This document shows, in pieces, positions 31,107 to 50,341 of a DNA stretch of 64,000 bases. A model generated the notes under the pieces. That model searched no databases. It worked only from the letters and a program-made list of their open reading frames with translations, and had not been told where the DNA came from. This DNA comes from Anaerolineae bacterium (lineage in GTDB: Bacteria > Chloroflexota > Anaerolineae > Anaerolineales > UBA4823), in NCBI GenBank assembly GCA_037439525.1, contig JBBIVW010000003.1, positions 124,393 through 188,392 on the forward strand, in the 5' to 3' direction. The position numbers and the translations under genes were made by a program. Position 1 is the first letter of the stretch; the number at the start of each line of letters is the position of its first letter.

Positions 31107-34100
31107 TCACCCCTGCACCTTGAGCTGCAAGCAGCGCCATACCTTTTCAGGCGTGAGGGGGTTGGCATCTATATCCGCGCCACAGGCATCATACACTGCA
31201 TTAGCCACCGCAGGCGCGACGCCATCCATGGGTATTTCGGCGACTGCTTTGACACCAAAAGGATGCGAAGGTTCCTGAGTTTCGATAAAAATCGTCTCCA
31301 AAGCAGGCATTTCGTGCGCTTGAAAGATGTGGTAATCGCGCAGATCGTGCTCGCGCGCCCTGCCGAATTCGTCGTAGCGCATCTCTTCGCATACAGCGTA
31401 GCCCAAAGCTTGGGTCATTCCGCCTTCGATTTGCCCGGAGGCGGTCAAGGGGTTGACAATGACGCCCGAATCGACCGCCATCACCAGTCTATCAACTACA
31501 ACCTGACCGGTTTCGATATCCACGGTGACTTCAGCGAATTGGGCGGCAAATGGTGGAGGGGAGACCGGCGACATGAACGAAGCCACAGCCATAATCTGTT
31601 CCTGGTCGGTATGATGCAGAGAATGCAATGCCACTTCCGCCAAGGTGACGGCGCGGCCGTCGGGTGCTATGGCTTGGCGCTCTGCAAGCACAAGGTCCTC
31701 TGCTTCCACCACAGGCAGTCCTTCTTCTGAGCGCGCGTTGAGAATGCGCGCCGCGCGCTGGCGGATCTTCTCCGCCACCTGCTGCGCAGCTTTGACAACC
31801 GCCCCCCCAGAGATGTAGGTGGTGCTGGAGGCATAGGCACCTTTATCAAACGGAGTGAAATCCGTGTCTGAGGAATATACTATGACATCCTCCAACGGCA
31901 CGCCCAACACCTCGGCGGCCATTTGAGCCAGGACCGTATCCGAACCGGTGCCTAGATCGGTCGCACCCACCAACAAGTTGAAAGAGCCATCATCATTGAG
32001 CTTGATGCTCGCCGCACCCATGTCCAGATAGGGGATGGCAGTGCCCTGCATCACCAGGGCAACCCCAATGCCGCGGCGTAAAAAGGGTTTGCCCGGTATG
32101 TGATGCCAGGCCGAGTTGTTAAACTTTCCATCCCAGCCGATCAGCGCCTTCCCTTGACGTACACATTCTTCTAATCCGCAGGTGAGGATGGTCTCGGGGC
32201 GCGGTTCGCGCCCCTCGCTCCAGGCAGTGCTGAAGGGGTGCAGCTCCCCGGCGCGCAGGGCATTTTTCAAGCGGAACTCCAGAGGGTCCAGATTCAGCGC
32301 GCGGGCGATTTTTTCCATGTGGCGCTCCACCGCCCAAAAGCCTTGGGGCACACCGTAACCGCGGTACGCCCCTGCCGGAGGGTGATTGGTGTACACCACA
32401 TCGGCATAAAAGCGGATGTTCGGCGATTGACGGTATTTGCCATCGCCGACATAAAGCGCCATGGATTTGTGTCCCGTGTTGCCGGTGACGGTAAGCGCAT
32501 GACAGCCATAGGCGCCGGTATCGGTGAGCACATGCATGGCATTGGCGGTGAGGGTACCGTCCTTTTTTACCCCGGTCTTCATGCGGATGCGCATAGGATG
32601 GCGCGAACGTCCGGCGATGAACTCCTCCTCGCGGGTGTACTCATAATACACGGGCCGACCGGTTGCAATGGTCAGGTGTGCAGCCACATCTTCAATGAGC
32701 ACCTCCTGCTTACCACCAAAGCCCCCGCCGATGCGCGGTTTGATCACGCGAATGCGCTTCATCGGCAAGCCCAATACCGGCGCCAGAATGCGCCGCGCAT
32801 GAAAGGGCACTTGGGTGCTGGTGCGAATCACCAGCCGATCGTCTTCGTCCCAGTAGGTGATGACTACATGCGGCTCAATGTGCGCCTGGTTGACCTTGGG
32901 GACTTCGTACTCAGCCTCAAAAATGTGGTCCGCTTCTGCAAAACCCTGCTCCACATCCCCAATGTCGATGCGGATCTCTGCAGCCAGGTTGCGGTGCGGG
33001 TCAGACTCGGCGAAATTGACGTACTCTGGCTCATCGTGCAAAATGGGGGCACCCGGCTGCATTGCCTGACGAGAATCCAACAAGGCAGGTAGAATTTCGT
33101 ATTCGACTTCGATAAGTTCCAATGCCTTTTCGGCGATTTCGGCGGTTTCAGCGGCCACAAAAGCCACCCGGTCGCCGACAAAGCGTACCTTGTTATCCAG
33201 GGAAAAGGTATCCAGGGGACCCGGGATGGGGTCGGACTGCCCGGCGGTGGAAAATGCCACGCGGGGGATATCCTCCCAGGTGAGCACTGCAGCCACTCCA
33301 GGCAAGGCGCGCGCTTTACTGGCGTCAATGCGTTTAATTCCCGCATGGGCATAAGGGCTGCGCAACACACGCGCAATCAACAAATCGCGTTTCTCGAAGT
33401 CGGCAGCGAAAGCCGGATTGCCCTGCACCAGTTTATAGGCATCCACCTTCACCTCGGGCGACCCGACGCGTTGCAAGCGCGGCATCTGTTCCGCAAGATG
33501 GATACGAGGCATAATCCGCGTGCGTAACAAGGCAGGGGAGATTGGTCCACCAGGCAAGTCTTCCGCCTCACCTCCCAAGTCATCCTTTGGCAACCACTCT
33601 GACGGCGCGGGGATCAACTCCTGTTCCCACTCTTCATCATCTACGGGCGGCACATCTTCGCCGCGCAGGCGCGCCGCGGCGCGTAATACCGCCTGCACCG
33701 GCTTGAGATATCCCGTGCAACGGCATAGCACGCCAGAAAGGGCTTCGCGCACCTGCTCCTCGTTGGGGTCAGGGTTTTGCTCAAGCAACTGACGGGCTGC
33801 CAGCACCTGCGCGGGAGTGCAATAGCCACATTGAATGGCTCCAGTTTCCACAAAAGCATGTTGAATCGGGTGCAATCCAGAGCTGGGCTTCCAGCCACGT
33901 TCGGGATGCTCGCCAAGCGCCTCGATGGCTTCAATTGAATGCCCTTCAGCCTGAGCAGCAAGGATCAAGCAGGCATTCACCGCTTTACCATCGAGTAAAA
34001 TCGTACATGCGCCACATTCTCCGGTCTCACATCCATGTTTGACACCGAAAAACCCCAATTTGCGCAGCACGCCAAGTAGCGTGTCCTTTGGAGAAGCGAC

Positions 34101-34142
34101 GAGTGAGTGCTTTTTATGGTTGATTTCCAAAGTAATTCTCAT
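31107..34142 (-). CDS. molybdenum hydroxylase large subunit fused to an N-terminal [2Fe-2S] module (XdhD/aldehyde-oxidase-like)
   Basis: GCETGECGACTILLDG, QCGYCTPAQ and LCRCTGY are followed by about 800 aa of molybdopterin-binding domain (GGGFGGK and GQIEGG blocks). Confidence 0.9.
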   Translation of the reverse strand: MRITLEINHKKHSLVASPKDTLLGVLRKLGFFGVKHGCETGECGACTILLDGKAVNACLILAAQAEGHSIEAIEALGEHPERGWKPSSGLHPIQHAFVETGAIQCGYCTPAQVLAARQLLEQNPDPNEEQVREALSGVLCRCTGYLKPVQAVLRAAARLRGEDVPPVDDEEWEQELIPAPSEWLPKDDLGGEAEDLPGGPISPALLRTRIMPRIHLAEQMPRLQRVGSPEVKVDAYKLVQGNPAFAADFEKRDLLIARVLRSPYAHAGIKRIDASKARALPGVAAVLTWEDIPRVAFSTAGQSDPIPGPLDTFSLDNKVRFVGDRVAFVAAETAEIAEKALELIEVEYEILPALLDSRQAMQPGAPILHDEPEYVNFAESDPHRNLAAEIRIDIGDVEQGFAEADHIFEAEYEVPKVNQAHIEPHVVITYWDEDDRLVIRTSTQVPFHARRILAPVLGLPMKRIRVIKPRIGGGFGGKQEVLIEDVAAHLTIATGRPVYYEYTREEEFIAGRSRHPMRIRMKTGVKKDGTLTANAMHVLTDTGAYGCHALTVTGNTGHKSMALYVGDGKYRQSPNIRFYADVVYTNHPPAGAYRGYGVPQGFWAVERHMEKIARALNLDPLEFRLKNALRAGELHPFSTAWSEGREPRPETILTCGLEECVRQGKALIGWDGKFNNSAWHHIPGKPFLRRGIGVALVMQGTAIPYLDMGAASIKLNDDGSFNLLVGATDLGTGSDTVLAQMAAEVLGVPLEDVIVYSSDTDFTPFDKGAYASSTTYISGGAVVKAAQQVAEKIRQRAARILNARSEEGLPVVEAEDLVLAERQAIAPDGRAVTLAEVALHSLHHTDQEQIMAVASFMSPVSPPPFAAQFAEVTVDIETGQVVVDRLVMAVDSGVIVNPLTASGQIEGGMTQALGYAVCEEMRYDEFGRAREHDLRDYHIFQAHEMPALETIFIETQEPSHPFGVKAVAEIPMDGVAPAVANAVYDACGADIDANPLTPEKVWRCLQLKVQG

Positions 34143-34370
34143 ATTGTTTCCAATCTCGACATCTGATCATGAAAAATGACAAACCCTTTGAGCAAACCTC
34201 CAGGGGTCAACAGGCATAAAAAACATTGAAAAGCCTCAAAGCATATTTTACCCTCTTTCTCACCTAAACAGCCTGCCGCAAGCGTTAGAGCCATGGGTAT
34301 AAGCCAGCAAAAGTCGGTTTCAGAGCCCCTTTTTTGGACGAGATTGCGTCCAGAAATTTGATATTAAACC

Positions 34371-34399
34371 TTGACAAAATTTAGACATCATGTTATATT
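34371..34399 (+). promoter_or_regulatory. sigma70-type promoter of the heliorhodopsin operon
   Basis: TTGACA (34371-34376), a 17-nt spacer, then TATATT (34394-34399) with TGT immediately upstream. A GGAG RBS precedes the ATG at 34460. Confidence 0.5.
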
Positions 34400-34459
34400 C
34401 TTACATCATCAGTACCAAATCTGAGGATACCTAAGCCTCGTAATCAATAGGAGAATAAG

Positions 34460-35254
34460 ATGAACACTCAAAAGCCAAGCCTCGGCGAAATCGACAGATA
34501 CGCCTCCCTGCGTCGCTTCAACCTCATCATGGGGTTTTTACATTTGATCCAAGGGGCGTTTATGTGGGTGGTCAGCAACGACACCACCTATCCAATTTTC
34601 ACCAACTTCCTTAAGTTTGACACAGCAACATTCTCGCTCAAGCCGGATTCTGAATTGTTTTATAAACTGCCATTAGGCCCAGCCGTGGCGATCTTCCTGC
34701 TTCTTTCTGCAGTGGCACATTTTTACCTCTCCACCATTGGCTACCAACGGTATGTTGCGGATTTAAAAAGCGGGAAAAATCCAATTCGATTTTATGAATA
34801 TGCCCTCAGTTCATCTTTGATGATCGTGTTGATCGGCATGCTCGCAGGTGTCTGGGACCTGGGCGCCATCCTCCTCATGTTCGCCTTGAACGCGACGATG
34901 AACCTGTTTGGGTTGCTCATGGAAAGCATCAATCAATACACCGAAAAAACCGACTGGACTCCATTTACGTTCGGCTCCATCGCGGGCATCATTCCCTGGG
35001 TGGTGATCTTCATCTACTTCTTTGGCGCAGTTGCCTCTGGCGGCGAGGCCAAGCCGCCTGCATTCGTGTATGCCATCATCCCGACACTTTTCGTCTTCTT
35101 CAACACCTTTGCGGTGAATATGTATCTGCAGTACAAAAAGGTTGGGAAATGGCGAGACTATCTTTACGGTGAACGAGGCTTCATTGTACTCAGCCTGGTA
35201 TCAAAATCCGTGCTCGCTTGGATGATTTTCGCGGGTACGCTTGCGCCAGTTTAG
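34460..35254 (+). CDS. heliorhodopsin (inverted-topology type-1-like retinal protein)
   Basis: 264 aa with 7 TM helices. By recall it aligns along its whole length to heliorhodopsin 48C12: FLHLIQ (His28), AVAHFYL (His87), RFYEYALSSS (counterion Glu113, GAA 34796-34798), LSLVSKSVLAW (Schiff-base Lys249, AAA 35204-35206), and the C-terminal IFAGTLAPV. Confidence 0.9.
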   Translation: MNTQKPSLGEIDRYASLRRFNLIMGFLHLIQGAFMWVVSNDTTYPIFTNFLKFDTATFSLKPDSELFYKLPLGPAVAIFLLLSAVAHFYLSTIGYQRYVADLKSGKNPIRFYEYALSSSLMIVLIGMLAGVWDLGAILLMFALNATMNLFGLLMESINQYTEKTDWTPFTFGSIAGIIPWVVIFIYFFGAVASGGEAKPPAFVYAIIPTLFVFFNTFAVNMYLQYKKVGKWRDYLYGERGFIVLSLVSKSVLAWMIFAGTLAPV

Positions 35255-35262
35255 AATAAACC

Positions 35263-36105
35263 ATGAGCATATCCATACTCACTGACAGCACCTGCGACCT
35301 TCCTGAAGAGGTCATCCAAAAGTACCAGATTGAGGTCGTCCCATTGTTCATTCAAATGGGAGAAAAACAACTGGTTGACGGGATGAATATCACCAAAGAA
35401 GAATTCTACGCCCGTCTGCCGGATTATGATCCGGCGCCCACTACAGCATCGCCAGGCCCGGATATCTTCAAAGAAGCCTACCGGCGCCTGGCTGCCCAGG
35501 GTGCAGAAACCATTCTCTCGCTACATATCTCCGAAGCCCTAAGCGCGACGATCAAGAGCGCTCGTATGGCTGCGCAGGAGATGGACCGCGTTGCCGTGCA
35601 AGTAATCGATTCGGGCCAACTCAGTCTAGGGCTGGGTTTTATGGTTGAAAGAGTTGCTCAGATGGCGCATCGTGGGGCAAGCCTGGAGGAGATCCAGCAC
35701 GAGATCAAAGAGATGCAATCCAGGACATATGTCTTCGCCGCGTTGGATACATTGGAATACCTGCGTCGCAGCGGGCGGATGCACATTGCCCTGGCGCGCT
35801 TTGGGGAGATTCTGCAATTGAAAGCCCTCCTGTACATGCACCAAGGGCGCCCCGAAGCTCATCGCATTCGCACAACCAAAAAAGCAATGCACAAGATGTT
35901 CTCCTGGCTGGAGCACCGCGCGCCGTTCGAAAAGCTGGCAGTCCTGCACGCAGGTGTATACGATAGAGCAAAAGCCTTGCGAGAACAGGTGCAAAAATAC
36001 CTCCCTAGGGAAGAGATCCCAATTACCCAGATCACCCCGGTTTTAGGGGCGCATCTGGGTGTGGGGGCTTTGGGTTTTGCCTGTATGTCACAAACGAAAA
36101 GGTGA
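35263..36105 (+). CDS. DegV family fatty-acid-binding protein
   Basis: MSISILTDSTCDLPEEVIQKYQIEVVPL... is the characteristic DegV N-terminus. The length is 280 aa. Confidence 0.9.
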   Translation: MSISILTDSTCDLPEEVIQKYQIEVVPLFIQMGEKQLVDGMNITKEEFYARLPDYDPAPTTASPGPDIFKEAYRRLAAQGAETILSLHISEALSATIKSARMAAQEMDRVAVQVIDSGQLSLGLGFMVERVAQMAHRGASLEEIQHEIKEMQSRTYVFAALDTLEYLRRSGRMHIALARFGEILQLKALLYMHQGRPEAHRIRTTKKAMHKMFSWLEHRAPFEKLAVLHAGVYDRAKALREQVQKYLPREEIPITQITPVLGAHLGVGALGFACMSQTKR

Positions 36106-36902
36106 ACGAAATGAATTTCATGACACTATGGCTTGAAGCGGGATTAATCATCCTGGGGTTGATGACTACACTCTGGTTGCTCAGCCTGGTGCTGAGAGAT
36201 TCGAGTATCGTAGACATCTTCTGGGGCACGGGTTTTGTGGTCACTTTTTGGGCTGCGGCCGCCCTGCTGCCAGATGGGCTCTCCCCGCGCAGCGTCCTAT
36301 TGGGCATATTGGTTACCATTTGGGGAGTGCGCCTGTCTGCATATATCGGCTACCGCAACATCGGGCACGGGGAGGACTTCCGCTACGCCCAATGGCGGCA
36401 GGAAGCCGGCTCTTCCTGGTGGTGGCGTAGCTTTTTCAAAGTCTTTTTGCTCCAAGGGGTGATCATGTGGCTGGTGGCAGCTCCCCTTCTGGCAGTGCAA
36501 ACCTCCAAAGCAAACGCTTCCATCGGTTGGATGGATCTGCTCGCCGTACTGGTATGGCTAATCGGTTTCATCTTCGAAGCTGGCGGTGACCTGCAACTGG
36601 CTCTTTTCAAACGCAATCCTGAAAACAAGGGGAAACTGTTAACCAGCGGGCTCTGGGGGCTAACCCGCCACCCGAACTATTTTGGAGACGCGTTGCAATG
36701 GTGGGGATTTTACCTATTCGCCCTGATCAGCGCAGGATGGTGGACGGTGTTCAGCCCGCTGATCATGACTTACCTGCTGCGAAACGTATCCGGCGTTGCC
36801 ATGCTGGAGAAATCGCTCAAAGACGCCAAGCCGGGCTACGAAGAATATGTCAGGCGCGTGCCGGCGTTTGTTCCGCGCATACTCCCGAAAAAAGGTGAAT
36901 AA
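36102..36902 (+). CDS. DUF1295 membrane protein (steroid 5-alpha-reductase/ICMT-like superfamily)
   Basis: Polytopic protein with the C-terminal block GLWGLTRHPNYFGDALQWWGFY. It overlaps degV by 4 nt. Confidence 0.8.
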   Translation: MNEMNFMTLWLEAGLIILGLMTTLWLLSLVLRDSSIVDIFWGTGFVVTFWAAAALLPDGLSPRSVLLGILVTIWGVRLSAYIGYRNIGHGEDFRYAQWRQEAGSSWWWRSFFKVFLLQGVIMWLVAAPLLAVQTSKANASIGWMDLLAVLVWLIGFIFEAGGDLQLALFKRNPENKGKLLTSGLWGLTRHPNYFGDALQWWGFYLFALISAGWWTVFSPLIMTYLLRNVSGVAMLEKSLKDAKPGYEEYVRRVPAFVPRILPKKGE

Positions 36903-36903
36903 C

Positions 36904-37248
36904 ATGAGTATATTGAAAATCCTTCAAATTGTCGGTGTCATCGGCACCGTGCTTACTGGCTTGATCGCCTTGTTCTTTCCGCGCAATATCCAAGGCTTTA
37001 CCGGGTTAACCGCACCTGGTGCGCGCGGCATCACAGAATTTCGCTCTGTCTTTGGCGGTGCCTTCATCGGATTGGGAATTGCCATTTTGGTTCTGGGAAC
37101 ACGAGAAGCCTACCAAACACTCGGCTTGATGTATCTGGCTATTGGAGTCATTCGGGCGATCTCCATGGTCGTGGATAAATCCTTCGAACAATCCAACTGG
37201 ATCAGCCTGGCAGCAGAAATCGTCTTCGGTGTAATCCTGGTGCTGTGA
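36904..37248 (+). CDS. small four-TM membrane protein (DUF4345-like by recall)
   Basis: 114 aa from the ATG at 36904, 1 nt after the upstream stop. It contains EFRSVFGGAFIGLG. Confidence 0.55.
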   Translation: MSILKILQIVGVIGTVLTGLIALFFPRNIQGFTGLTAPGARGITEFRSVFGGAFIGLGIAILVLGTREAYQTLGLMYLAIGVIRAISMVVDKSFEQSNWISLAAEIVFGVILVL

Positions 37249-37586
37249 TGCGAACCGCCAAAATTATCGCTCTACTAGGGCTGGCCGCGATGAGCGCAGC
37301 GTTAATATTCGGCTTTACCGTAGGAGATTTTATCTCCGAGGGAGGTCAACTGGTTTCCATGCCGTGGGGGATTGTCTCCCTGGTGGATTTGTACACAGGC
37401 TTTGTGCTTTTCTCGGTGTGGATCATTTTCCGGGAAAAATCTCTTCCTGTGGCTATCCTGTGGACCATCGGAATGCTGGTATTAGGGTTTTGGGCGGGAA
37501 GCCTCTACTTTTTGCAAGCCCTATACTTCAGCAAAGGCGACTGGCGCAAGTTCTGGTTGGGCAAACACGCCTCACGCGGGGATTAA
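37245..37586 (+). CDS. small membrane protein (DUF1475-like by recall)
   Basis: 113 aa with a 4-nt start/stop overlap. It contains PWGIVSLVDLYTGF. Confidence 0.55.
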   Translation: MMRTAKIIALLGLAAMSAALIFGFTVGDFISEGGQLVSMPWGIVSLVDLYTGFVLFSVWIIFREKSLPVAILWTIGMLVLGFWAGSLYFLQALYFSKGDWRKFWLGKHASRGD

Positions 37587-37613
37587 CTCCCGAAGTGTTT
37601 CTGGGCAATTATT

Positions 37614-38282
37614 ATGAACAAAGCACACGAGCTGTGGGCCGAATTAAAATCAGTGCTCGGCAACCGACTGTTGGATGTAATTCTGCCGCCGCTATTTTTC
37701 TTGCTTATCAATGGATTATGGGGGCTGGCCACCGCAATGGTCACTTCGCTCTTTGTTGCCGCGGCAATTTCCTATGTTCGCCTGCGGCGCGGGGAAAGCC
37801 TGCGATATGCACTGGCTGGTGTGGTCAGCCTCCTGACGGCCCTGGCGCTTACCTGGATATTAGGGCGCGCAGAAGGTTATTTCATCCCCGGATTGGTGAA
37901 CGCCGCCCTTACTTTCGGGATCTGTGCTCTCAGCTTGTTCATCAAACGCCCTCTGACTGCCTGGAGCAGTTATTTAGTACGCCGCTGGCCTTTGGAGTGG
38001 TATTGGCACCCTCGCGTGCGCCCAGCCTACACCCAGACAACGCTGCTCTGGACAGCCTTTTTCGGCGTGCGGTTTCTATGGCAATACAATCTTTTCCGCG
38101 ATAACCAGGTAGAAACATTAGCTTGGGTAAATGCCCTCTTGGGGTGGCCAGCCCTGATCATCCTGTTAGTCATCACGTACCTGGTCGGGATATGGATGCT
38201 CCGACGTTTAAAAGGGCCGAGTGTAGAGGAATTTCGAGCAGGTACCCCACCCCCCTGGCACAGCCAGCGAAGAGGGTTTTAG
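37614..38282 (+). CDS. polytopic membrane protein, hypothetical (DUF3159-like by recall)
   Basis: 222 aa with about 6 TM helices. I preferred it over the overlapping Arg/Cys-rich ORF at 37364-38104. Confidence 0.55.
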   Translation: MNKAHELWAELKSVLGNRLLDVILPPLFFLLINGLWGLATAMVTSLFVAAAISYVRLRRGESLRYALAGVVSLLTALALTWILGRAEGYFIPGLVNAALTFGICALSLFIKRPLTAWSSYLVRRWPLEWYWHPRVRPAYTQTTLLWTAFFGVRFLWQYNLFRDNQVETLAWVNALLGWPALIILLVITYLVGIWMLRRLKGPSVEEFRAGTPPPWHSQRRGF

Positions 38283-38310
38283 CAATTCTAAAATTATAAA
38301 GGAAAGAACG

Positions 38311-39315
38311 ATGATTCGAGAACAATGGTATGTCGTTTTAGAATCCAACCAGGTTGGGAACAAACCGATTAGTGCGCTGCGCCTGGGTGAAAAGATGGTC
38401 TTCTGGAGGGACGGTCAGGGGGTTGTGCGATGTGCTGTAGATCGCTGCCCGCATCGCGGTGCAGCCCTGAGCAAAGGGAGCATAACCAATAACCACCTGC
38501 AATGCCCTTTTCATGGATTTGAGTTCAACGCTCAGGGAATGTGTGTGCATATCCCGGCAAATGGACGAGGGGGCAATATCCCTAAGTCAATGCGCTTGCA
38601 AAGTTACCCTACATACGAAGAACATGGCTTTATCTGGATTTGGTGGGGAGATTCCGCACCTAAAGATAAACCCGAATTCTTCGATAACATTGGCAACGAG
38701 TTCCAATATACTTCCGTGCAAGACGCCTGGAATACACATTATTCGCGCGTGATAGAGAATCAGCTGGATGTGGCCCATTTACCCTTCATACACAAGAAAA
38801 CCATCGGTCGCGGTGGCCGCACGGTGGTGGATGGCCCGTTGGTTGAATGGCATGGGGAAAAATTGCTGTACACTTATGTGTTCAATCGCAAAGACGACGG
38901 AACACCTGCGCGCAAGCCTTCGGAGTTATCTGCTGCACAATCCAGCAGCGTGCATTTGGAATTCATCATGCCCAACCTGTGGCAAAACTATATCAGCGAA
39001 AATGTGCGCATTCTCATCGCCTTTGTGCCAGTGGATAACGATAACACCCTGCTGTACCTGCGCTTCTACCAAAAAACCATTCCCATTCCACTTGTGGGCA
39101 AGATTTTCACCCTTCTGGCAATGCCGATGAACATCTTCATCGCCCATGAGGATAGATACATTGTGGAGACACAAGAGCCAAAAGCAAGCGGGTTGAAAAT
39201 CGGTGAAATTTTAATCCAGGGGGACCTTCCCATCATCGAATATCGGCGAAGGCGCGCCGAGTTGCAAGCCAAATCAAATTCCTATCAAAAAGAAAGCAAG
39301 AGTAATGAAAAATAA
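38311..39315 (+). CDS. Rieske [2Fe-2S] / mononuclear non-haem iron oxygenase (PaO/KshA-like alpha subunit)
   Basis: The Rieske motif is CPHRG...CPFHGF. The catalytic iron motif is ENQLDVAHLPFIH (DxxHxxxxH). Confidence 0.85.
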   Translation: MIREQWYVVLESNQVGNKPISALRLGEKMVFWRDGQGVVRCAVDRCPHRGAALSKGSITNNHLQCPFHGFEFNAQGMCVHIPANGRGGNIPKSMRLQSYPTYEEHGFIWIWWGDSAPKDKPEFFDNIGNEFQYTSVQDAWNTHYSRVIENQLDVAHLPFIHKKTIGRGGRTVVDGPLVEWHGEKLLYTYVFNRKDDGTPARKPSELSAAQSSSVHLEFIMPNLWQNYISENVRILIAFVPVDNDNTLLYLRFYQKTIPIPLVGKIFTLLAMPMNIFIAHEDRYIVETQEPKASGLKIGEILIQGDLPIIEYRRRRAELQAKSNSYQKESKSNEK

Positions 39316-40573
39316 GTCCCTAACCGCGATCATCCTGGTCGTTTTCATCGACCTGCTAGGTTTCAGCCTAATCCTGCCCCTTCTGCCTTATTATGCAGAT
39401 ACCTATGGCGCCGGAGGCGCCGTCACCGGTTTGCTGGTAGCCTCTTATGCAATCATGCAGCTGATTGGCGCACCCATACTTGGGCGCTTATCGGATAGAC
39501 ACGGACGAAGGCCCTTATTACTGATCTCGGTCGCAGGCACCTCACTGGGCTTTCTACTTCTGGCTCTGGCGGACCCAATTGGAAATTTCCTGGCACAAAG
39601 CTTCAATTCGAATGCTGCGAATATATTTATCATCGCTTTGCTCTTCCTGAGTCGCATGTTGGATGGATTGACCGGCGGGAATATCAGCGTGGCTCAGGCT
39701 TACATTACGGATGTTACCGTAGAAAAGGAGCGCGCCAGAGGCTTGGGGCTAATTGGTGCCGCATTTGGATTAGGTTTTATCATCGGTCCTGCAGCCGGAG
39801 GCCTGCTCAGCCAATGGGGATACGCCGTCCCCGCATTTGTCGCCACAGCTCTGACCATATGCAACCTTGCGCTGATATATTTCTGGTTGCCAGAATCGCT
39901 CTCGCAACAGAGGCGAGATGAACTGCGCACCACCCCGAACACGCCGTTGACGCTAAACGCTCTGATTCGGGCACTACAAAGACCGTATAGCGGAGCATTG
40001 TTGACCACGCGTTTTTTCTTCAACCTGGCATTTTCGATCTTGCAAACCATTTTTTCGCTCTATGCTCTAGAGCGGTTCAGCTTATCTGCACAAAGTACGG
40101 GGTTTTTACTTACCTATATCGGTCTGTTATCTGTGTTTGTGCAGGGTTTTTTAGTAGGTAAACTGAATGCACGCTATCGTGATGATCTACTCATCCCGGC
40201 GGCTGTGAGCATCATGACCATCGCCATGCTCGGATGGGCCTGGGCTCCCAATATCCCCTGGCTGTTGCTCGTGCTCGCTCCGATGGCAATATCCGGAGGG
40301 CTTTTAAATACCTTGTTATCTTCCTCCCTGACCAAAGCTGTACAAAGAAATGAAGTGGGGGGTATTTTAGGGTTAGGAGCTTCGTTGGATAGCGCAACAC
40401 GCATCATCGCGCCCATTATGGGCGGGATGCTCATCCAACAGTATGGCACATCAGCTCCTGGTATCGCAGGGGCGATGATCCTGGCTGGGCTGTCGATGTA
40501 CGTATGGCGGATTATTTATGCCCACCCGATAGCTGTTGAAATAGACACTAGTCAAAGGAAGATACAGGCATGA
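39305..40573 (+). CDS. MFS transporter (12 TM, drug:H+ antiporter-like)
   Basis: GRLSDRHGRRP motif A between TM2 and TM3, with 12 hydrophobic segments. Confidence 0.85.
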   Translation: MKNKSLTAIILVVFIDLLGFSLILPLLPYYADTYGAGGAVTGLLVASYAIMQLIGAPILGRLSDRHGRRPLLLISVAGTSLGFLLLALADPIGNFLAQSFNSNAANIFIIALLFLSRMLDGLTGGNISVAQAYITDVTVEKERARGLGLIGAAFGLGFIIGPAAGGLLSQWGYAVPAFVATALTICNLALIYFWLPESLSQQRRDELRTTPNTPLTLNALIRALQRPYSGALLTTRFFFNLAFSILQTIFSLYALERFSLSAQSTGFLLTYIGLLSVFVQGFLVGKLNARYRDDLLIPAAVSIMTIAMLGWAWAPNIPWLLLVLAPMAISGGLLNTLLSSSLTKAVQRNEVGGILGLGASLDSATRIIAPIMGGMLIQQYGTSAPGIAGAMILAGLSMYVWRIIYAHPIAVEIDTSQRKIQA

Positions 40574-41280
40574 TTCATTACTTGAGACAAGAATTAACCG
40601 TCCCCGTTGACTTGGAGGCCATCTGGCCTTATTTCGCAACACCCCGAAACCTGAATGAATTGACACCCAGCACGATGCGCTTTGAGTTCGTTGCCGGTGG
40701 GGAGGAGCCAATGTATGCCGGGCAGATCATCGAATACAAGGTAGAGATTCTGCCCGGAATTAGGGTACGTTGGCTGACAGAAATTACTCATATGGAACAA
40801 TATAAATACTTCATCGACGAGCAGCGTATTGGTCCTTATCGCCTGTGGATCCACGAGCACCGTTTTGAAGGCGTGGAAAACGGGACGCGCATCCTAGACC
40901 GAGTTACTTATGGGCTTCCGTTTGGTTTTTGGGGTGATCTTGTGCATAAGCTCTTTGTGCGCCAACGGCTTAAATGGATTTTCGACTATCGCGCCGAGCA
41001 AATAAAAGGCTGTTTGGTTAGATTTGCGTGGTGCCATAGACCCTTTTTCTTCGCACCGTTAGCAATCACTCGCCGTGACCGTGCTGTGTTGCGGGCTATA
41101 TATGGACCGACCTTTAATATTCAGGCAGGAAGGATGAACCTGCCTTTCTCACCAAAGGATCGCATGTGGGGGAATTTCGGGTTAGCTCAGCACACGAGCG
41201 CCAACATGATATACGAAACGGAACGAATGGACTTGAGTTTCCAGGAAACGGTACGGCGCCCTAGCCGGCCAAGGTCATAA
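40570..41280 (+). CDS. SRPBCC (START/cyclase-dehydrase-like) protein with an unexplained ~85-aa C-terminal extension
   Basis: The first ~150 aa form a complete small SRPBCC domain (...RLWIHEHRFE...IFDYRAEQI). The tail has an atypical composition and runs into an inverted repeat. Confidence 0.65.
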   Translation: MIHYLRQELTVPVDLEAIWPYFATPRNLNELTPSTMRFEFVAGGEEPMYAGQIIEYKVEILPGIRVRWLTEITHMEQYKYFIDEQRIGPYRLWIHEHRFEGVENGTRILDRVTYGLPFGFWGDLVHKLFVRQRLKWIFDYRAEQIKGCLVRFAWCHRPFFFAPLAITRRDRAVLRAIYGPTFNIQAGRMNLPFSPKDRMWGNFGLAQHTSANMIYETERMDLSFQETVRRPSRPRS

Positions 41281-41298
41281 CCCGTTTCCTGGAAACTC
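41235..41298. repeat. perfect 17-bp inverted repeat with a 30-nt spacer, spanning the SRPBCC stop codon
   Basis: GAGTTTCCAGGAAACGG (41235-41251) pairs with CCGTTTCCTGGAAACTC (41282-41298). Confidence 0.8.
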
Positions 41299-41594
41299 GC
41301 AAACTGCGCCAGTCGATCCAAGAAACGAATGCAAACGTTCCGAATCAGCGTTGTAAACCCACCCAGATTCCAACCATCCGTTGGGTTTTTCAGCTTTTTA
41401 AATGCTTGGACATCCTGTTGGCGAAGCGAAACAGTGAAGTGACACTTATCAGCTCCTGAACCTACAGGTAGCTCAAGAAGAGATCATCAAGCTACTTGGC
41501 CCTCAGGCGATAAAATGCAATTGGTTCGGTTCTTAAGGCACGGAATGCGGGATGAACAAGAGGCTACAGCCAGCTTCAGCCGCAAACGATACCC

Positions 41595-44588
41595 CTAGGG
41601 ATTGACCCAGCTAAACACCTGACCGTTAAACCTGGGTAACGGAACTAGCTCACACGTTTGAGGGTTGATTAGGGCAGGGATTTGGCGTGGAAGGAATATA
41701 TAGGGAGGGTGCACCGTCACCAGAATCCAGTCACCCTCACCCGACCATAGGGGATTGCTCAGAAACAGCTCCCCGAGCTGCAGGATCAATTGACGTTGGG
41801 AATGATCCATCAGTGAAACAAACAATCCTGCCGCAAGCTCTCCGGGGACCCTTTCCAAGTAGGCTACCCTGGTGCCATCAGGAGAGATGGCAGCTTCACC
41901 ACCACGAGTGCTATCAAAAGAGAACAGACTGTGTTCGATTCCGGTGAGCAGGTCTTTGAACATCAGAGTCACCCTTTTATCTGCAGGGAGGGTGAAATAA
42001 ATTCCTGTTCCATCAGGCTCCCATCCGACCAGCCCCTCGTACTCGCCATGGGAGGTCACCTGCTGTAAGCTATCGGTATATAGATGGAGTATGTAGATGT
42101 CTGCTTGGGCAGAGCGGATGAACGCCAGAGAGCCGCCGTCTGGTGACCAGAGCGGAGCATAGTCTCCCGGCTGGGTAGCGGCGAGGAAACGATCGATGCC
42201 AGAGGTCAGATCAAAGAGATGCAAACCATCGTCCGTGCTGTAAGCCACGCTTGAAACCTGTGGCGAGAGGGCATACCACGCACCTGGAGGGAGCGCCTGT
42301 CGGTGGCTACCGTCCAAATCCGCGATAAAGGCACCAAAATCTTCAAGTGTGGAGGAGTAATCTCGCTCACCCAAATGTCCGTAGACGATAACTTTGCCTC
42401 CCACGCCTGCAGGCAAAGCTGGTGGCTGAGCCAGCGTTGCCAGCCAAGCCGCAGATGAAGCACATGCTTGAAGCTGTGACGGAGGCGGCGCGTTCGGGTC
42501 AGCATCGGGTGGTGCCCAGGTCGCCTGCCAGGCACCTTTGAGGGAAATCTGGTGCACCGCAAAGGTGAATAAACCGGTTAGCTCGCCATCTGTTAGGACA
42601 TACGAGCGCAGGACTCCCTCGGCATCGCGCCCCGAACCGCCACCACCACGTCCCTGACCTCCAATAACGCCGCTATCGAGGGTCACATGTATCGCCTGAA
42701 TGGCCGGAGGCGCCTCCCAGGTGAGTTCAAACCCTTGCAAGTCACCCTGGCGTACAAAGCGTAAGGAACGTACTTGCACAATGTATGCGGGCAACTCGAT
42801 AGGAAGTAAACCGATCTTCCAAGAATTTCCTAATTGCTGTGGGGCAGCATTGAAACCCATGGAGGCCAGGTCGATCGTGAAGGAAACCGGCTGGGCAAAG
42901 GTGATCTCGACCTGGTTCATCTTCAAAGTCAACGGTGCGCGTAAAGGGCGACCATATACTCGCCCGACCCATTGCGCCGGGGTAGTTTCGCTCAGCCCTA
43001 GCTCGTCCGCGTGGGCGGGCTCGAATGGCACATTTTCTCCCTGAGCATCCTGCAGCTGCATATTCCAGGCGCTTGAGGCTACCTCGGAAAGGCGTGTATC
43101 TTCCCATTTCAAAGCGCCAGCCAGATAATAGCCATCCTCCAGTGGGATAGACCTCTCCAAAGCGAGTTCGATACCAAATGGAGACAGCTCCTCTGCATCG
43201 GTTGTCGCATCCTCTGGCGACCAGGTCACTGTATAGACTGGCCCAGGGGAGCGTAGGATCAGCTCGGTGACCGCCAGGGTAATCTCTCCAACAGGTGGGG
43301 TTCCCTGATACTCCAGGCTGGCATGAACCATCCCTTGCCCATCCCCGCCCCCACCACCGCCCATAGGTTGTGTACCGGGGATTTCGATAGCGATACTCTC
43401 CACCTGCGGTTGTGTAGTAAATGTAAAGTCATAACCGTGGCCGGTGAAAGTTGCCGAGTCCAGTCGTACTGGAATTCCATCGATGATCACCTGATCATCC
43501 AACTCCCATTCCTGCCCTTTCTGCGGGTTGGGACCGGTATCGAATGTAAACGTTGCCTGGCTGGGGACGGAGTCTAAGCGATCGGATTGCACCGTAAAAC
43601 GAAGCGGCCAGGCAATATCCCCTGCGGACAGGCGATATGCCCAAACCATATCCACTTCTTCAGGCACATCACTAAAGTCGATGTCGTTGGCAAAAACTGC
43701 AAACTGCGCTTGTCCGCGAGCATCCGTGATCTCCACTGTGGACATAAACGCGGTGAGCATACCGCCATCTAGAAGATGCACATTGGTGAAGGTAAGCAGG
43801 AAGATATATCCATCGGAATACTCTACGACACGGTGCAGTTGAAACGGAGCGGGCGATGGAATAGCCTCTGGTTGGGCGCTCGCTTCGACCGAAGGTATAG
43901 CAGTGGAATCCAACTGCGGGGGCGTGGGGGTGGGCACATCGATCACCTCTGCTATAGCAATATCGGGCGGCGCAGCGACGAAGCGCAGGGTCAATTCCCA
44001 ATTTTCGGGAGCCTTGCCAGGCAGGGTACCTAAGAGGCACGGCATAACGAACGTGATTTCATCGATATCGGGGGAAATCGGGGCATACACAAAGCGGCTG
44101 GCATGCGGCGAGCCGCCACCGCTAATCAGCTGCATGCTCTCTCCGCTCGGCAGGCGCAGGAATGCCTGTCCGCTGCAGCCAGGGATATTTTCTTCAGGAG
44201 ACAAAGCCTCCCATGGCACGCCTTCCACCGAGAAGAGCACGACGCTTTTGTCGGAGCTAAGCACCGCCTGATGAACCGTCAGGGTTATCCCCTGACGGGT
44301 GAGACTCACCGGTTGTTCCAGGATGCGCAATGTGGCATCCTGTTGGATCACACCTACGCCAGGGATATATCCCAAAACATTGCCCAGAGCATAAGCGACA
44401 CCCGCCAGAGCGGCTAAAATCAACAATGCCAACAATACCGCTGCGACAGGGTGGTAGCGCCAGATACGCCGCAATGGCGCCTGCTTTTCTCGACTCACCT
44501 GTTCGACAAGGCGAGGGAACAGATCGAAATTGTCTGGGATGTGCGCGCGGGCAATTTCATCGAGGATTTCAGCAGATGATGGCTTCAT
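41595..44588 (-). CDS. membrane-anchored anti-sigma factor-like protein with duplicated middle domains and a C-terminal TolB/PD40-like propeller
   Basis: The ATG at 44588 overlaps the sigma-factor stop (ATGA). There is a short cytoplasmic N-terminus and one TM. Two similar domains each carry a Gly-rich loop (MGGGGGGDGQG; GRGGGGSGRD). The C-terminus has SPDGxxxAF/Y repeats. Confidence 0.75.
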   Translation of the reverse strand: MKPSSAEILDEIARAHIPDNFDLFPRLVEQVSREKQAPLRRIWRYHPVAAVLLALLILAALAGVAYALGNVLGYIPGVGVIQQDATLRILEQPVSLTRQGITLTVHQAVLSSDKSVVLFSVEGVPWEALSPEENIPGCSGQAFLRLPSGESMQLISGGGSPHASRFVYAPISPDIDEITFVMPCLLGTLPGKAPENWELTLRFVAAPPDIAIAEVIDVPTPTPPQLDSTAIPSVEASAQPEAIPSPAPFQLHRVVEYSDGYIFLLTFTNVHLLDGGMLTAFMSTVEITDARGQAQFAVFANDIDFSDVPEEVDMVWAYRLSAGDIAWPLRFTVQSDRLDSVPSQATFTFDTGPNPQKGQEWELDDQVIIDGIPVRLDSATFTGHGYDFTFTTQPQVESIAIEIPGTQPMGGGGGGDGQGMVHASLEYQGTPPVGEITLAVTELILRSPGPVYTVTWSPEDATTDAEELSPFGIELALERSIPLEDGYYLAGALKWEDTRLSEVASSAWNMQLQDAQGENVPFEPAHADELGLSETTPAQWVGRVYGRPLRAPLTLKMNQVEITFAQPVSFTIDLASMGFNAAPQQLGNSWKIGLLPIELPAYIVQVRSLRFVRQGDLQGFELTWEAPPAIQAIHVTLDSGVIGGQGRGGGGSGRDAEGVLRSYVLTDGELTGLFTFAVHQISLKGAWQATWAPPDADPNAPPPSQLQACASSAAWLATLAQPPALPAGVGGKVIVYGHLGERDYSSTLEDFGAFIADLDGSHRQALPPGAWYALSPQVSSVAYSTDDGLHLFDLTSGIDRFLAATQPGDYAPLWSPDGGSLAFIRSAQADIYILHLYTDSLQQVTSHGEYEGLVGWEPDGTGIYFTLPADKRVTLMFKDLLTGIEHSLFSFDSTRGGEAAISPDGTRVAYLERVPGELAAGLFVSLMDHSQRQLILQLGELFLSNPLWSGEGDWILVTVHPPYIFLPRQIPALINPQTCELVPLPRFNGQVFSWVNP

Positions 44589-49699: not shown

Positions 49700-50341
49700 A
49701 TGTCACAAGGTCTCGATTTATCCTCTCTATTTCAGGCTGTAACGAAGACGTTATCACAAAACAAAGAATCGCTCAACCAAGCAGATGAATACAACCACGA
49801 CCATGGCGACAACATGGTGGAAATCTTTCGCGTGATCACCGAAGCCATGGAAACCAAACGCGGTGCCGACCCGGCGGATCAACTGGCTTATGCCAGCGAA
49901 TTGCTGAGATCTCGTACAAAGAGTGGTTCAGCAGAGATGTATGCCCAAGGGTTATCTCGGGCTGCCCAAGAATTTCAAGGCCGGAAGGACGTTACACCTG
50001 AGGCGATCCCCAGCCTTATCCAGGCAATGCTCGGCACACAACAGCCTGCTCAAAAACAGAGCCAGCCTTCCAGCGGAGACTTACTTGGTTCACTGCTCGG
50101 CAGCTTAGTCGGATCCCAAACACAACAACCTCAGCAAGATGAAGGTTTGGACCTGGGCGACTTGTTAAACGCTGGGATGGCTTTCTTGAGCGCCAAACAA
50201 CAAGGTGGCGATAACTTGGAAGCGCTGATAAATGCCATAAGCTCATCCACCCAAACTGGTCAACGTCCCTATAGGGCTCAGTCTGGTGCGCTCGTGGCGA
50301 ACACATTGCTCCAGTTGATCTCTAGGATGGGTAACCGCTAG
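49700..50341 (+). CDS. hypothetical protein with DAK2-like N-terminal motif and Gln/Ser-rich linker
   Basis: ADEYNHDHGDNMV resembles the DAK2 DxxxGDGDxGxNM motif. The family assignment is weak. Confidence 0.45.
   Translation: MSQGLDLSSLFQAVTKTLSQNKESLNQADEYNHDHGDNMVEIFRVITEAMETKRGADPADQLAYASELLRSRTKSGSAEMYAQGLSRAAQEFQGRKDVTPEAIPSLIQAMLGTQQPAQKQSQPSSGDLLGSLLGSLVGSQTQQPQQDEGLDLGDLLNAGMAFLSAKQQGGDNLEALINAISSSTQTGQRPYRAQSGALVANTLLQLISRMGNR

Follow-up and report, generated by a model that had tools for sequence, protein, structure and literature searches.

Three heliorhodopsins (HeRs) provide the reference points for the gene described here: 48C12, the founding member of the family (PDB 6SU3, 6SU4, 6UH3); TaHeR, from Thermoplasmatales archaeon SG8-52-1 (PDB 6IS6, 7CLJ, 7U55); and BcHeR, from Bellilinea caldifistulae (Anaerolineae). 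None of the three transports ions, and all have photocycles longer than 1 s (PMC9385722). For BcHeR, the report of Shibukawa et al. (2019), as cited in PMC9385722, describes a low-irradiance habitat, a slow photocycle and no ion transport; in the same second-hand account the protein reportedly lacks an M intermediate. At the genomic level, Chazan et al. (bioRxiv 10.1101/2021.02.16.431466; Environ Microbiol 2022) found DegV and DUF2177, often accompanied by DUF1295, to be most typical of HeR surroundings, chiefly in Firmicutes and Chloroflexi, and a role in membrane-lipid remodelling has been proposed for this neighbourhood (bioRxiv 10.1101/2021.02.16.431466). The present work concerns a HeR gene from an Anaerolineae bacterium, located at positions 34460–35254 of a 64,000-nucleotide stretch of contig JBBIVW010000003.1 (assembly GCA_037439525.1; hereafter, "the window"). 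Taken as a whole, the locus probably encodes a functional, non-pumping sensor HeR at the head of a light-induced string of genes with a lipid-handling output; the individual parts of this reading are graded below.

The gene was found exactly where a first-pass annotation, made from the letters of the window, had placed a 264-amino-acid (aa) open reading frame (ORF):

34460–35254, forward strand: HeR coding sequence (P0001), 264 aa, ATG start; identified by ORF, profile and structure matches

Profile, sequence and fold searches agree on the identity of the encoded protein. It matches the Pfam profile PF18761 with 339.9 bits (cut-off 26.7; E 9.4e-102; profile positions 1–242 of 242), and the NCBIfam equivalog "heliorhodopsin HeR" (NF038020) with 364 bits (cut-off 100; E 3.6e-109). 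A search of the PDB returns TaHeR (E 2.5e-73) as well as 48C12 (E 3.7e-60), the weakest match being the 317-aa 9vfc chain (E 1.5e-42). In a Foldseek comparison with the PDB, the best ten matches are all HeRs (E 6e-17 to 5e-12; TM-scores 0.71–0.78), with type-1 rhodopsins starting after a large gap, at E 0.18 (about 0.2) and 10–16% identity. Other families of seven transmembrane (TM) helices were ruled out: Pfam and NCBIfam searches at E up to 1 yield heliorhodopsin alone, and a YtrI profile match of 12 bits (cut-off 125) was dismissed as noise. The type-1 rhodopsin profile PF01036 does not match the HeR protein at E up to 1. The annotation's assignment, which was built on a block-by-block likeness to 48C12, is thus borne out, no other 7-TM family being favoured by the profile or fold searches. 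All of its blocks reappear when the protein is aligned by HMMER with the solved chain of 48C12 (window HeR/48C12: gflhliq/gvfhllq, avahfyl/alfhfiv, irfyeyalssslmivli/frwveyslsssvmivli, gsiagiipw/gciagivpw, and the TM6–7 block). Comparison with relatives gives dN/dS values below 0.1 (dS is saturated in most pairs); strong purifying selection acts on the gene, which is intact. Judged on its sequence, ORF 34460–35254 is almost certainly an intact, full-length heliorhodopsin.

The residues that matter for HeR function were compared with those of 48C12, with which the window HeR shares 47% identity over 251 aligned residues. Twenty-seven functional positions were transferred from 48C12, and their conservation was checked in 19 homologues; all 27 are invariant or conservatively substituted. 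The most informative are as follows (where coordinates are given, the codon is on the forward strand):

34541–34543, forward strand: His28 (CAT, TM1), one half of the His pair (48C12 H23); invariant in the homologues
34718–34720, forward strand: His87 (CAT, TM2), the other half of the His pair (48C12 H80); invariant in the homologues
34796–34798, forward strand: Glu113 (GAA, TM3), Schiff-base counterion (48C12 E107), by alignment; invariant in 19/19 homologues
35204–35206, forward strand: Lys249 (AAA, TM7), retinal Schiff-base lysine (48C12 K241), by alignment; invariant in 19/19 homologues
S83: near the Schiff base (48C12 S76)
S245: hydrogen bond to the counterion (48C12 S237); invariant in the homologues
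E155 and E238: inner-cavity glutamates (48C12 E149 and E230)
F169, S173, G176, F214 and A218: fenestration and carotenoid-site rule (48C12 F162, C166, G169, F206 and A210)

Glu113 and Lys249, the two residues singled out in the first-pass annotation, align exactly to E107 and K241 of 48C12. Of the 27 positions, 25 were scored as identical to 48C12, and only two differ in kind (W105→F111 and Q213→M221). The residues H23, S76, H80, E107, S237, K241, E149, E230, F162, G169 and F206 of 48C12 are common to both proteins; 48C12 differs in that it belongs to actinobacterial branch A and has another gene neighbourhood. According to the rule of Kornilov et al., aromatic residues at 162 and 206, small residues at 166 and 210, and Gly169 mark a lateral fenestration, or carotenoid-binding site. 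The window HeR follows this rule in full (F169/F214, S173/A218, G176): the change C166→S173 is conservative, and the small-residue part of the rule is still satisfied. These positions predict that all-trans-retinal forms a protonated Schiff base with Lys249, and that Glu113 serves as the counterion, with His28, His87 and Ser245 around it.

The best solved match is TaHeR, at 47–48% identity and TM-scores of 0.73–0.78. Like the window HeR, TaHeR has the Glu counterion, the Lys and the fenestration; unlike it, TaHeR is archaeal, a DegV or CarH context has not been reported for it, and its EF loop is six residues shorter. An AlphaFold2 (AF2) model of the window HeR was made from a shallow alignment of 19 sequences and was used for secondary structure and fold ranking only. 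The model contains seven long TM helices and, by DSSP, strands at 43–54 and 59–71 (an A–B beta-hairpin) and a helix at 95–103 (in the B–C loop), all at low confidence (pLDDT 62); a beta-hairpin in a long A–B loop and a helical B–C loop have been described as unique to HeRs. Lysines and arginines number 13 on the N-terminus and the B–C, D–E and F–G loops, versus three on the opposite side, a distribution that fits the N-in topology of the HeR family. We therefore have a protein that is predicted, from sequence and model, to have seven TM helices in inverted topology, with a cytoplasmic N-terminus. By analogy with the three studied HeRs, it is probably a non-pumping sensor or regulator.

The gene is an ordinary member of a known family, with a published type of neighbourhood and thousands of homologues. 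That the family is not new had already been remarked in the first-pass annotation, and over 7,000 database proteins match the window HeR at E <1e-10, the nearest being 94% identical; the named matches are Anaerolineae or Anaerolineales proteins from metagenome-assembled genomes (MAGs), some labelled "heliorhodopsin HeR". Among GTDB representative genomes, 496 candidate stretches encode a HeR relative. The best 80 of these were taken as loci for comparison (numbered L below; genomes are numbered G, the host being G000), and almost all are from Anaerolineae/Chloroflexota. HeRs from Bellilinea sp. MAGs (L046 and L047, which are not the type-strain BcHeR) are 72–73% identical to the window HeR, which makes BcHeR, from the same class as the host, taxonomically the closest HeR to have been studied. 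Across genomes of the host's family and order, HeR distribution is patchy (11 of 41 genomes). The host carries a single copy, one genome (G016) has three full HeR genes, and another (G011) retains only a decayed HeR, a 27-residue fragment with an in-frame TGA (G011:C11:6337-6417). Gain and loss of HeR appear to be ongoing in the family.

The HeR gene heads a tightly packed, same-strand string of nine genes:

34449–34453, forward strand: Shine-Dalgarno sequence AGGAG, 6 nt before the HeR ATG
35263–36105, forward strand: DegV-family fatty-acid-binding protein, 8 nt after the HeR stop (PF02645, 257.5 bits)
36102–36902, forward strand: DUF1295 membrane protein (steroid-reductase/ICMT-like), with a 4-nt overlap with the DegV stop (PF06966, 246.8 bits)
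36904–38282, forward strand: three small membrane proteins, namely DUF4345, a 113-aa ORF and DUF3159 (Pfam); all recur beside HeR in relatives
38311–41280, forward strand: Rieske/VanA_C oxygenase, MFS transporter and, ending the string, a 236-aa ORF without a Pfam match; the distal part of the string

The first-pass annotation had called the genomic context the informative part of the locus. That assessment stands, with the qualification that the DegV/DUF1295 context is already published (Chazan et al.). As in the published neighbourhood, DegV and DUF1295 follow directly after HeR, on the same strand, in a Chloroflexota genome. The third member of the published triad, DUF2177, is replaced here by DUF4345, the 113-aa membrane ORF and DUF3159; indeed, DUF2177 (PF09945) has no match in the whole host genome at E up to 0.1, while it was detected in control genomes. 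Synteny was examined in the related loci by tblastn with the window proteins (E <1e-8), by which diverged neighbours can be missed. This limit is partly offset by a Pfam tally of the +1 and −1 neighbours, which relies on crude ORF calls and covers 67 of the 80 loci (the 13 lacking a HeR ORF call were left out). Of the 17 loci with the closest HeRs (79–87% identical), 13 have DegV directly 3' of HeR, and the small membrane proteins follow in most of the 17. In three further loci (L024, L025, L038), the set DegV-DUF1295-DUF4345-113aa-DUF3159 lies upstream of HeR on the same strand, and the linkage to HeR therefore survives rearrangement. The distal Rieske/MFS/236-aa part keeps its HeR linkage in only some relatives (L012, L013, L024, L068). 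The host genome encodes five DegV paralogues. One adjoins a FakA-type kinase, and the HeR-linked DegV is therefore an extra copy.

On the other side of the HeR gene, a molybdenum hydroxylase operon occupies the opposite strand, with a gap of 317 nt between HeR and its divergent gene. This gap contains a promoter and a candidate operator:

34371–34399, forward strand: sigma-70-type promoter, TTGACA-17 nt-(TG)TATATT (11/12 matches), from sequence
34367–34388, forward strand: two perfect tandem 11-bp repeats in the form of the CarH operator, nAnnTnnACAn (AACCTTGACAA, AATTTAGACAT), over the −35 box

The CarH operator consensus is nAnnTnnACAn, in three or four tandem 11-bp repeats (PMC8156234). The repeats over the HeR −35 box match the form and 11-bp spacing of those in known CarH/LitR systems, while a third register (34389–34399) matches at two of the five specified positions. 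The two-repeat pattern occurs once in the window, versus 0.07 expected occurrences. Across the genome, three of its five matches (the HeR site included) are intergenic, and each of these three sits on a TTGACA −35 box, 65–89 nt before a start codon. They belong to (i) the HeR operon, (ii) an NmrA/SDR gene that is divergent from the genome's carH-type gene, and (iii) a membrane alpha/beta-hydrolase. The latter two promoters are:

L082:2538–2559: NmrA/SDR-like promoter, perfect TTGACA-17-TATAAT, with two perfect repeats (AATATGTACAA AACATTGACAT)
G000:C5:15229 region (L083:5188-6262), reverse strand: third promoter, with three repeats in register scoring 5/5/4

The third promoter precedes a membrane-anchored alpha/beta-hydrolase, followed by a 117-aa AhpC/TSA-like ORF, and may belong to a small regulon for light or oxidative stress. 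A relaxed genome-wide scan, allowing up to one mismatch, gave 116 matches, mostly inside ORFs, and no further convincing site; the candidate CarH regulon consists of the three promoters. In the related loci, seven perfect matches were found in 1.2 Mb, versus approximately 1.3 expected, at the promoters of litR-HeR strings. The same −35/repeat layout lies ahead of the litR-HeR strings of L003, L004 and L006, and the L003 promoter (AACCTTGACAAAAGATGGACAC...TATAAT) is almost identical to the window site.

A regulator that could act on these promoters is encoded elsewhere in the genome:

G000:C5:29227-30153 (L082:1477-2463), reverse strand: P0121, the sole CarH/LitR-type gene of the genome, 328 aa, on a different contig from HeR

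P0121 consists of a MerR-type helix-turn-helix (HTH), a four-helix B12-binding_2 domain and a B12-binding domain, and contains the Wx9EH motif (W-ENGEIDIAT-EH). A lower-axial His lies in the sequence ELHEGS, and the gene is the one that diverges from the NmrA/SDR-like gene above. The class I adenosylcobalamin (AdoB12) repressors CarH/LitR of Thermus thermophilus, Bacillus megaterium and Myxococcus xanthus (PMC8156234) have the same domains and the same Wx9EH motif. The known CarH systems differ from the present arrangement in that their cargo is carotenoid genes; here, the cargo would be a HeR/lipid-handling operon, with the regulator in trans. Among relatives, a gene encoding MerR-HTH, B12-binding_2 and B12-binding domains lies directly upstream of HeR in 11 of the 67 loci, all of them among the closest relatives, whereas the upstream neighbour of the window HeR is not a MerR-B12 regulator. 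"MerR family regulators" and "cobalamin-binding proteins" have been listed as HeR neighbours in the literature, with no operator or light-induction reading attached; Bulzu et al. name neither. The HeR-adjacent regulators of relatives are mostly about 440–535 aa by crude ORF calls (L002:4503-5855, L004, L006-L008, L010-L012, L015, L016, L018); that of L002 is 450 aa and, beyond approximately residue 300, has no Pfam match. By comparison, canonical CarH (about 300 aa) and P0121 (328 aa) are far shorter.

Where the host would obtain its retinal was addressed with a profile search of the host genome, which is 95.9% complete. Blh/BCD, RPE65-type carotenoid oxygenase and phytoene synthase (SQS_PSY) were not found; the positive controls matched for RPE65 and SQS_PSY, and the BCD control matched weakly, in Haloferax. 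The first-pass annotation had noted no visible retinal source within the window, and the same now holds for the whole genome. Type-1 rhodopsin (Bac_rhodopsin, PF01036) and photolyase or cryptochrome were likewise not found in the host genome. Given that the retinal-pathway genes were not found, retinal is either exogenous or supplied by an unknown route, and the gene content is suggestive of a retinal auxotroph that scavenges retinal. Genomes whose only rhodopsin is a HeR usually do not carry blh (bioRxiv 10.1101/2021.02.16.431466). The TaHeR host also has no retinal route, and the TaHeR fenestration has been proposed as an entry for exogenous retinal; by analogy, exogenous retinal probably enters the window HeR via the conserved lateral fenestration. 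The Rieske oxygenase at the distal end of the string was considered as an unconventional retinal-forming enzyme and set aside: the genome does not contain a pathway for the carotenoid substrate, and few relatives keep the linkage to HeR.

According to the literature, the occurrence of HeRs is mostly limited to the photic zone, BcHeR being an exception from low light (PMC9385722). The only public sequencing run found to contain the window 34300–37300 sequence is labelled a subsurface metagenome and has it as DNA contigs; among public runs, no RNA run with the HeR sequence was found. Several of the closest relatives are groundwater or (deep-)mine MAGs. The subsurface is an unusual habitat for a retinal photoreceptor together with a B12 photoreceptor.

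These elements can be assembled into a mechanism. In the dark, AdoB12-bound CarH would be bound to the tandem repeats that overlap the −35 box; on illumination it would come off, and the heR-degV-DUF1295... string would be transcribed. The HeR would then insert with its N-terminus inside and take scavenged all-trans-retinal onto K249. On absorbing green-yellow light, it would enter a long-lived signalling state and would not pump ions, as is the case for TaHeR, BcHeR and 48C12. This state might be read by co-encoded partners, the likeliest being the dedicated DegV and the small membrane proteins, and the handling of fatty acids and membrane lipids would be adjusted as a result under light or photo-oxidative stress. 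An output through DegV and lipids is a tentative proposal. Equally tentative is the complete picture, a two-photoreceptor cascade in a retinal/carotenoid auxotroph in which CarH opens the operon and a HeR carrying scavenged retinal gates DegV and the membrane proteins, leading to lipid remodelling or repair.

Were this picture true, B12 light regulons would regularly include heliorhodopsin as cargo, also in genomes where the regulator is no longer encoded beside it. If the CarH link in particular holds, light would act twice in succession, first on the expression of HeR and then on its signalling, and the operator motif could be used to find HeR regulons that have no adjacent regulator. The locus has value as a test case in two respects: (i) the HeR is single-copy, in a small genome with no other rhodopsin, no retinal/carotenoid pathway and no photolyase detected, and (ii) it is translationally packed with a dedicated DegV, behind a CarH-operator-like promoter whose regulator lies elsewhere. 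The additions to what has been published are incremental, namely genome-wide retinal auxotrophy, a probable CarH operator in trans, and a subsurface origin.

Several points weigh against the proposed mechanism. On the side of regulation, the HeR promoter contains two perfect repeats, versus three or four in known CarH operators, and one of the two (DR1) owes four of its five specified bases to the −35 hexamer. Genome-wide, the five matches to the two-repeat pattern lie within the random expectation of 1–6 obtained by simulation; only the position of the sites is unusual, not their count. The canonical CarH B12 motif is ExHxxG, and in the ELHEGS of P0121 the Gly is shifted by one position; moreover, P0121 shares only 32% identity with the regulators found next to HeR in relatives. 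On the side of the output, the DegV set is missing from most loci in which HeR is 77% identical or less, and the HeR-DegV link is not universal in the literature. The subsurface label and the failure to find a photolyase sit oddly with a light response, and the confidence of the AF2 model is low. Finally, it is from sequence that we infer retinal binding, the photocycle, the identity of the partner and CarH control.

The chief alternative to regulation by CarH is that a strong, AT-rich sigma-70 promoter has the tandem repeats as a by-product, with the operon constitutive or otherwise regulated. That DR1 is largely the −35 hexamer, that only two repeats are perfect and that the genome-wide motif count equals random expectation are all what a by-product would predict, as are the facts that carH is not adjacent to HeR and is only distantly paralogous (32%) to the regulators linked to HeR in relatives. 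It is also in line with the finding that actinobacterial HeR transcripts rose in the dark, not in the light (PMC8591293). It does not readily account for the placement of the sites, however: all three intergenic matches are promoter-positioned, one of them beside carH; the −35/repeat layout recurs ahead of the litR-HeR strings in L003, L004 and L006; and perfect matches in the related loci exceed expectation (seven versus approximately 1.3). With these arguments on the two sides, we put CarH control of the HeR operon, as read from sequence motifs, at about even odds, and regard a promoter by-product as a serious contender that falls somewhat short of that. A relic explanation would cut deeper, by denying the HeR any photoreceptor role in a dark subsurface and leaving an idle apoprotein or a light-independent membrane function. 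The subsurface label of the source run, the many close relatives among groundwater or mine MAGs, the retinal, carotenoid and photolyase genes that were not found, and the patchy distribution of HeR (11/41 genomes, with one broken remnant in G011) all lend it some colour. A relic would not be expected to show dN/dS below 0.1 with saturated dS, invariance of every tested chromophore-contacting residue, or a near-consensus promoter and Shine-Dalgarno site, and the same genome keeps a B12 photoreceptor gene. Because of the strong purifying selection and the retained B12 photoreceptor, light is taken still to matter to these organisms, and we consider a relic very improbable.

The remaining alternatives accept a working HeR and assign it another task. 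In a two-antenna model, the protein would be a light harvester with an exogenous carotenoid as second antenna, rather than a regulator of neighbouring proteins. The carotenoid-site rule of Kornilov et al. is followed in full, the absence of carotenoid synthesis from the genome means that any antenna would have to be exogenous, as the model proposes, and the literature lists the host phylum among the main HeR-bearing groups, described as largely monoderm. Nevertheless, prokaryotic HeRs of this branch have no known energy-converting output and no transport (PMC9385722), the model was built on docking and one eukaryotic structure, and the conserved linkage to DegV and membrane proteins is left unexplained; an antenna could, moreover, coexist with a sensory role and does not preclude it. 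We consider light harvesting as the function unlikely. A little less likely still is that the HeR is itself a light-dependent enzyme or lipid-handling protein, a speculation of Chazan et al., with DegV supplying or removing fatty acid at the fenestration. The tight coupling of HeR and DegV (an 8-nt gap, and adjacency in 13/17 of the closest loci) would suit such a role, as would the status of the HeR-linked DegV as an extra paralogue besides the housekeeping FakA-DegV pair; in addition, HeR crystal structures, as cited in bioRxiv 10.1101/2021.02.16.431466, hold monoolein or eicosane at the fenestration. Against this, where HeR functions are known, the protein acts as a regulator by binding glutamine synthetase, photolyase or an ABC transporter, and the majority of more distant loci have no DegV linkage. 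To our knowledge, no HeR has been reported to act as a catalyst. Light-driven or light-gated proton transport, as in viral heliorhodopsins, is the least probable of all and borders on the negligible: some viral HeRs (V2HeR3) do move protons (PMC9385722), and Glu155 and Glu238 line the inner cavity as in 48C12, yet the transporting HeRs are a viral subfamily that does not have the fenestration motif present here, the window HeR groups with TaHeR/BcHeR-type proteins that show no transport, and TaHeR is a much closer match than the 317-aa 9vfc chain (E 1.5e-42). A non-pumping sensory or regulatory HeR remains the reading that we prefer.

A number of minor observations concern the surroundings of the string. 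Just 5' of the HeR promoter, inside the 317-nt gap, a hairpin with a 10-bp stem is followed by a T-rich tract (34331–34356); it could be a promoter insulator, or be left over from a rearrangement in which a regulator gene was lost. An Rfam scan of 33900–41700 found no riboswitch or leader element. In L024, the Rieske oxygenase and MFS transporter also lie upstream of HeR, and a two-repeat motif approximately 9.2 kb upstream of HeR (L024:802) possibly heads that string. Back in the window, a weak second Dak2-domain match (29.6 bits), in a 217-aa ORF, falls at ~49799–50032 (G000:C3:174191-174424), ~15 kb downstream of the HeR operon; the full FakA-type gene is a different one, at C3:49256. Finally, in a distant HeR group (L027, L030, L042, L052, L067), another DegV paralogue, 27–32% identical, is encoded divergently, 244–340 nt upstream of HeR. 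It represents a second and independent form of HeR-DegV association. These five loci also have a large convergent ORF after HeR, and the Pfam tally records BipA/TypA GTPase domains in five downstream neighbours, which are most likely these ORFs.

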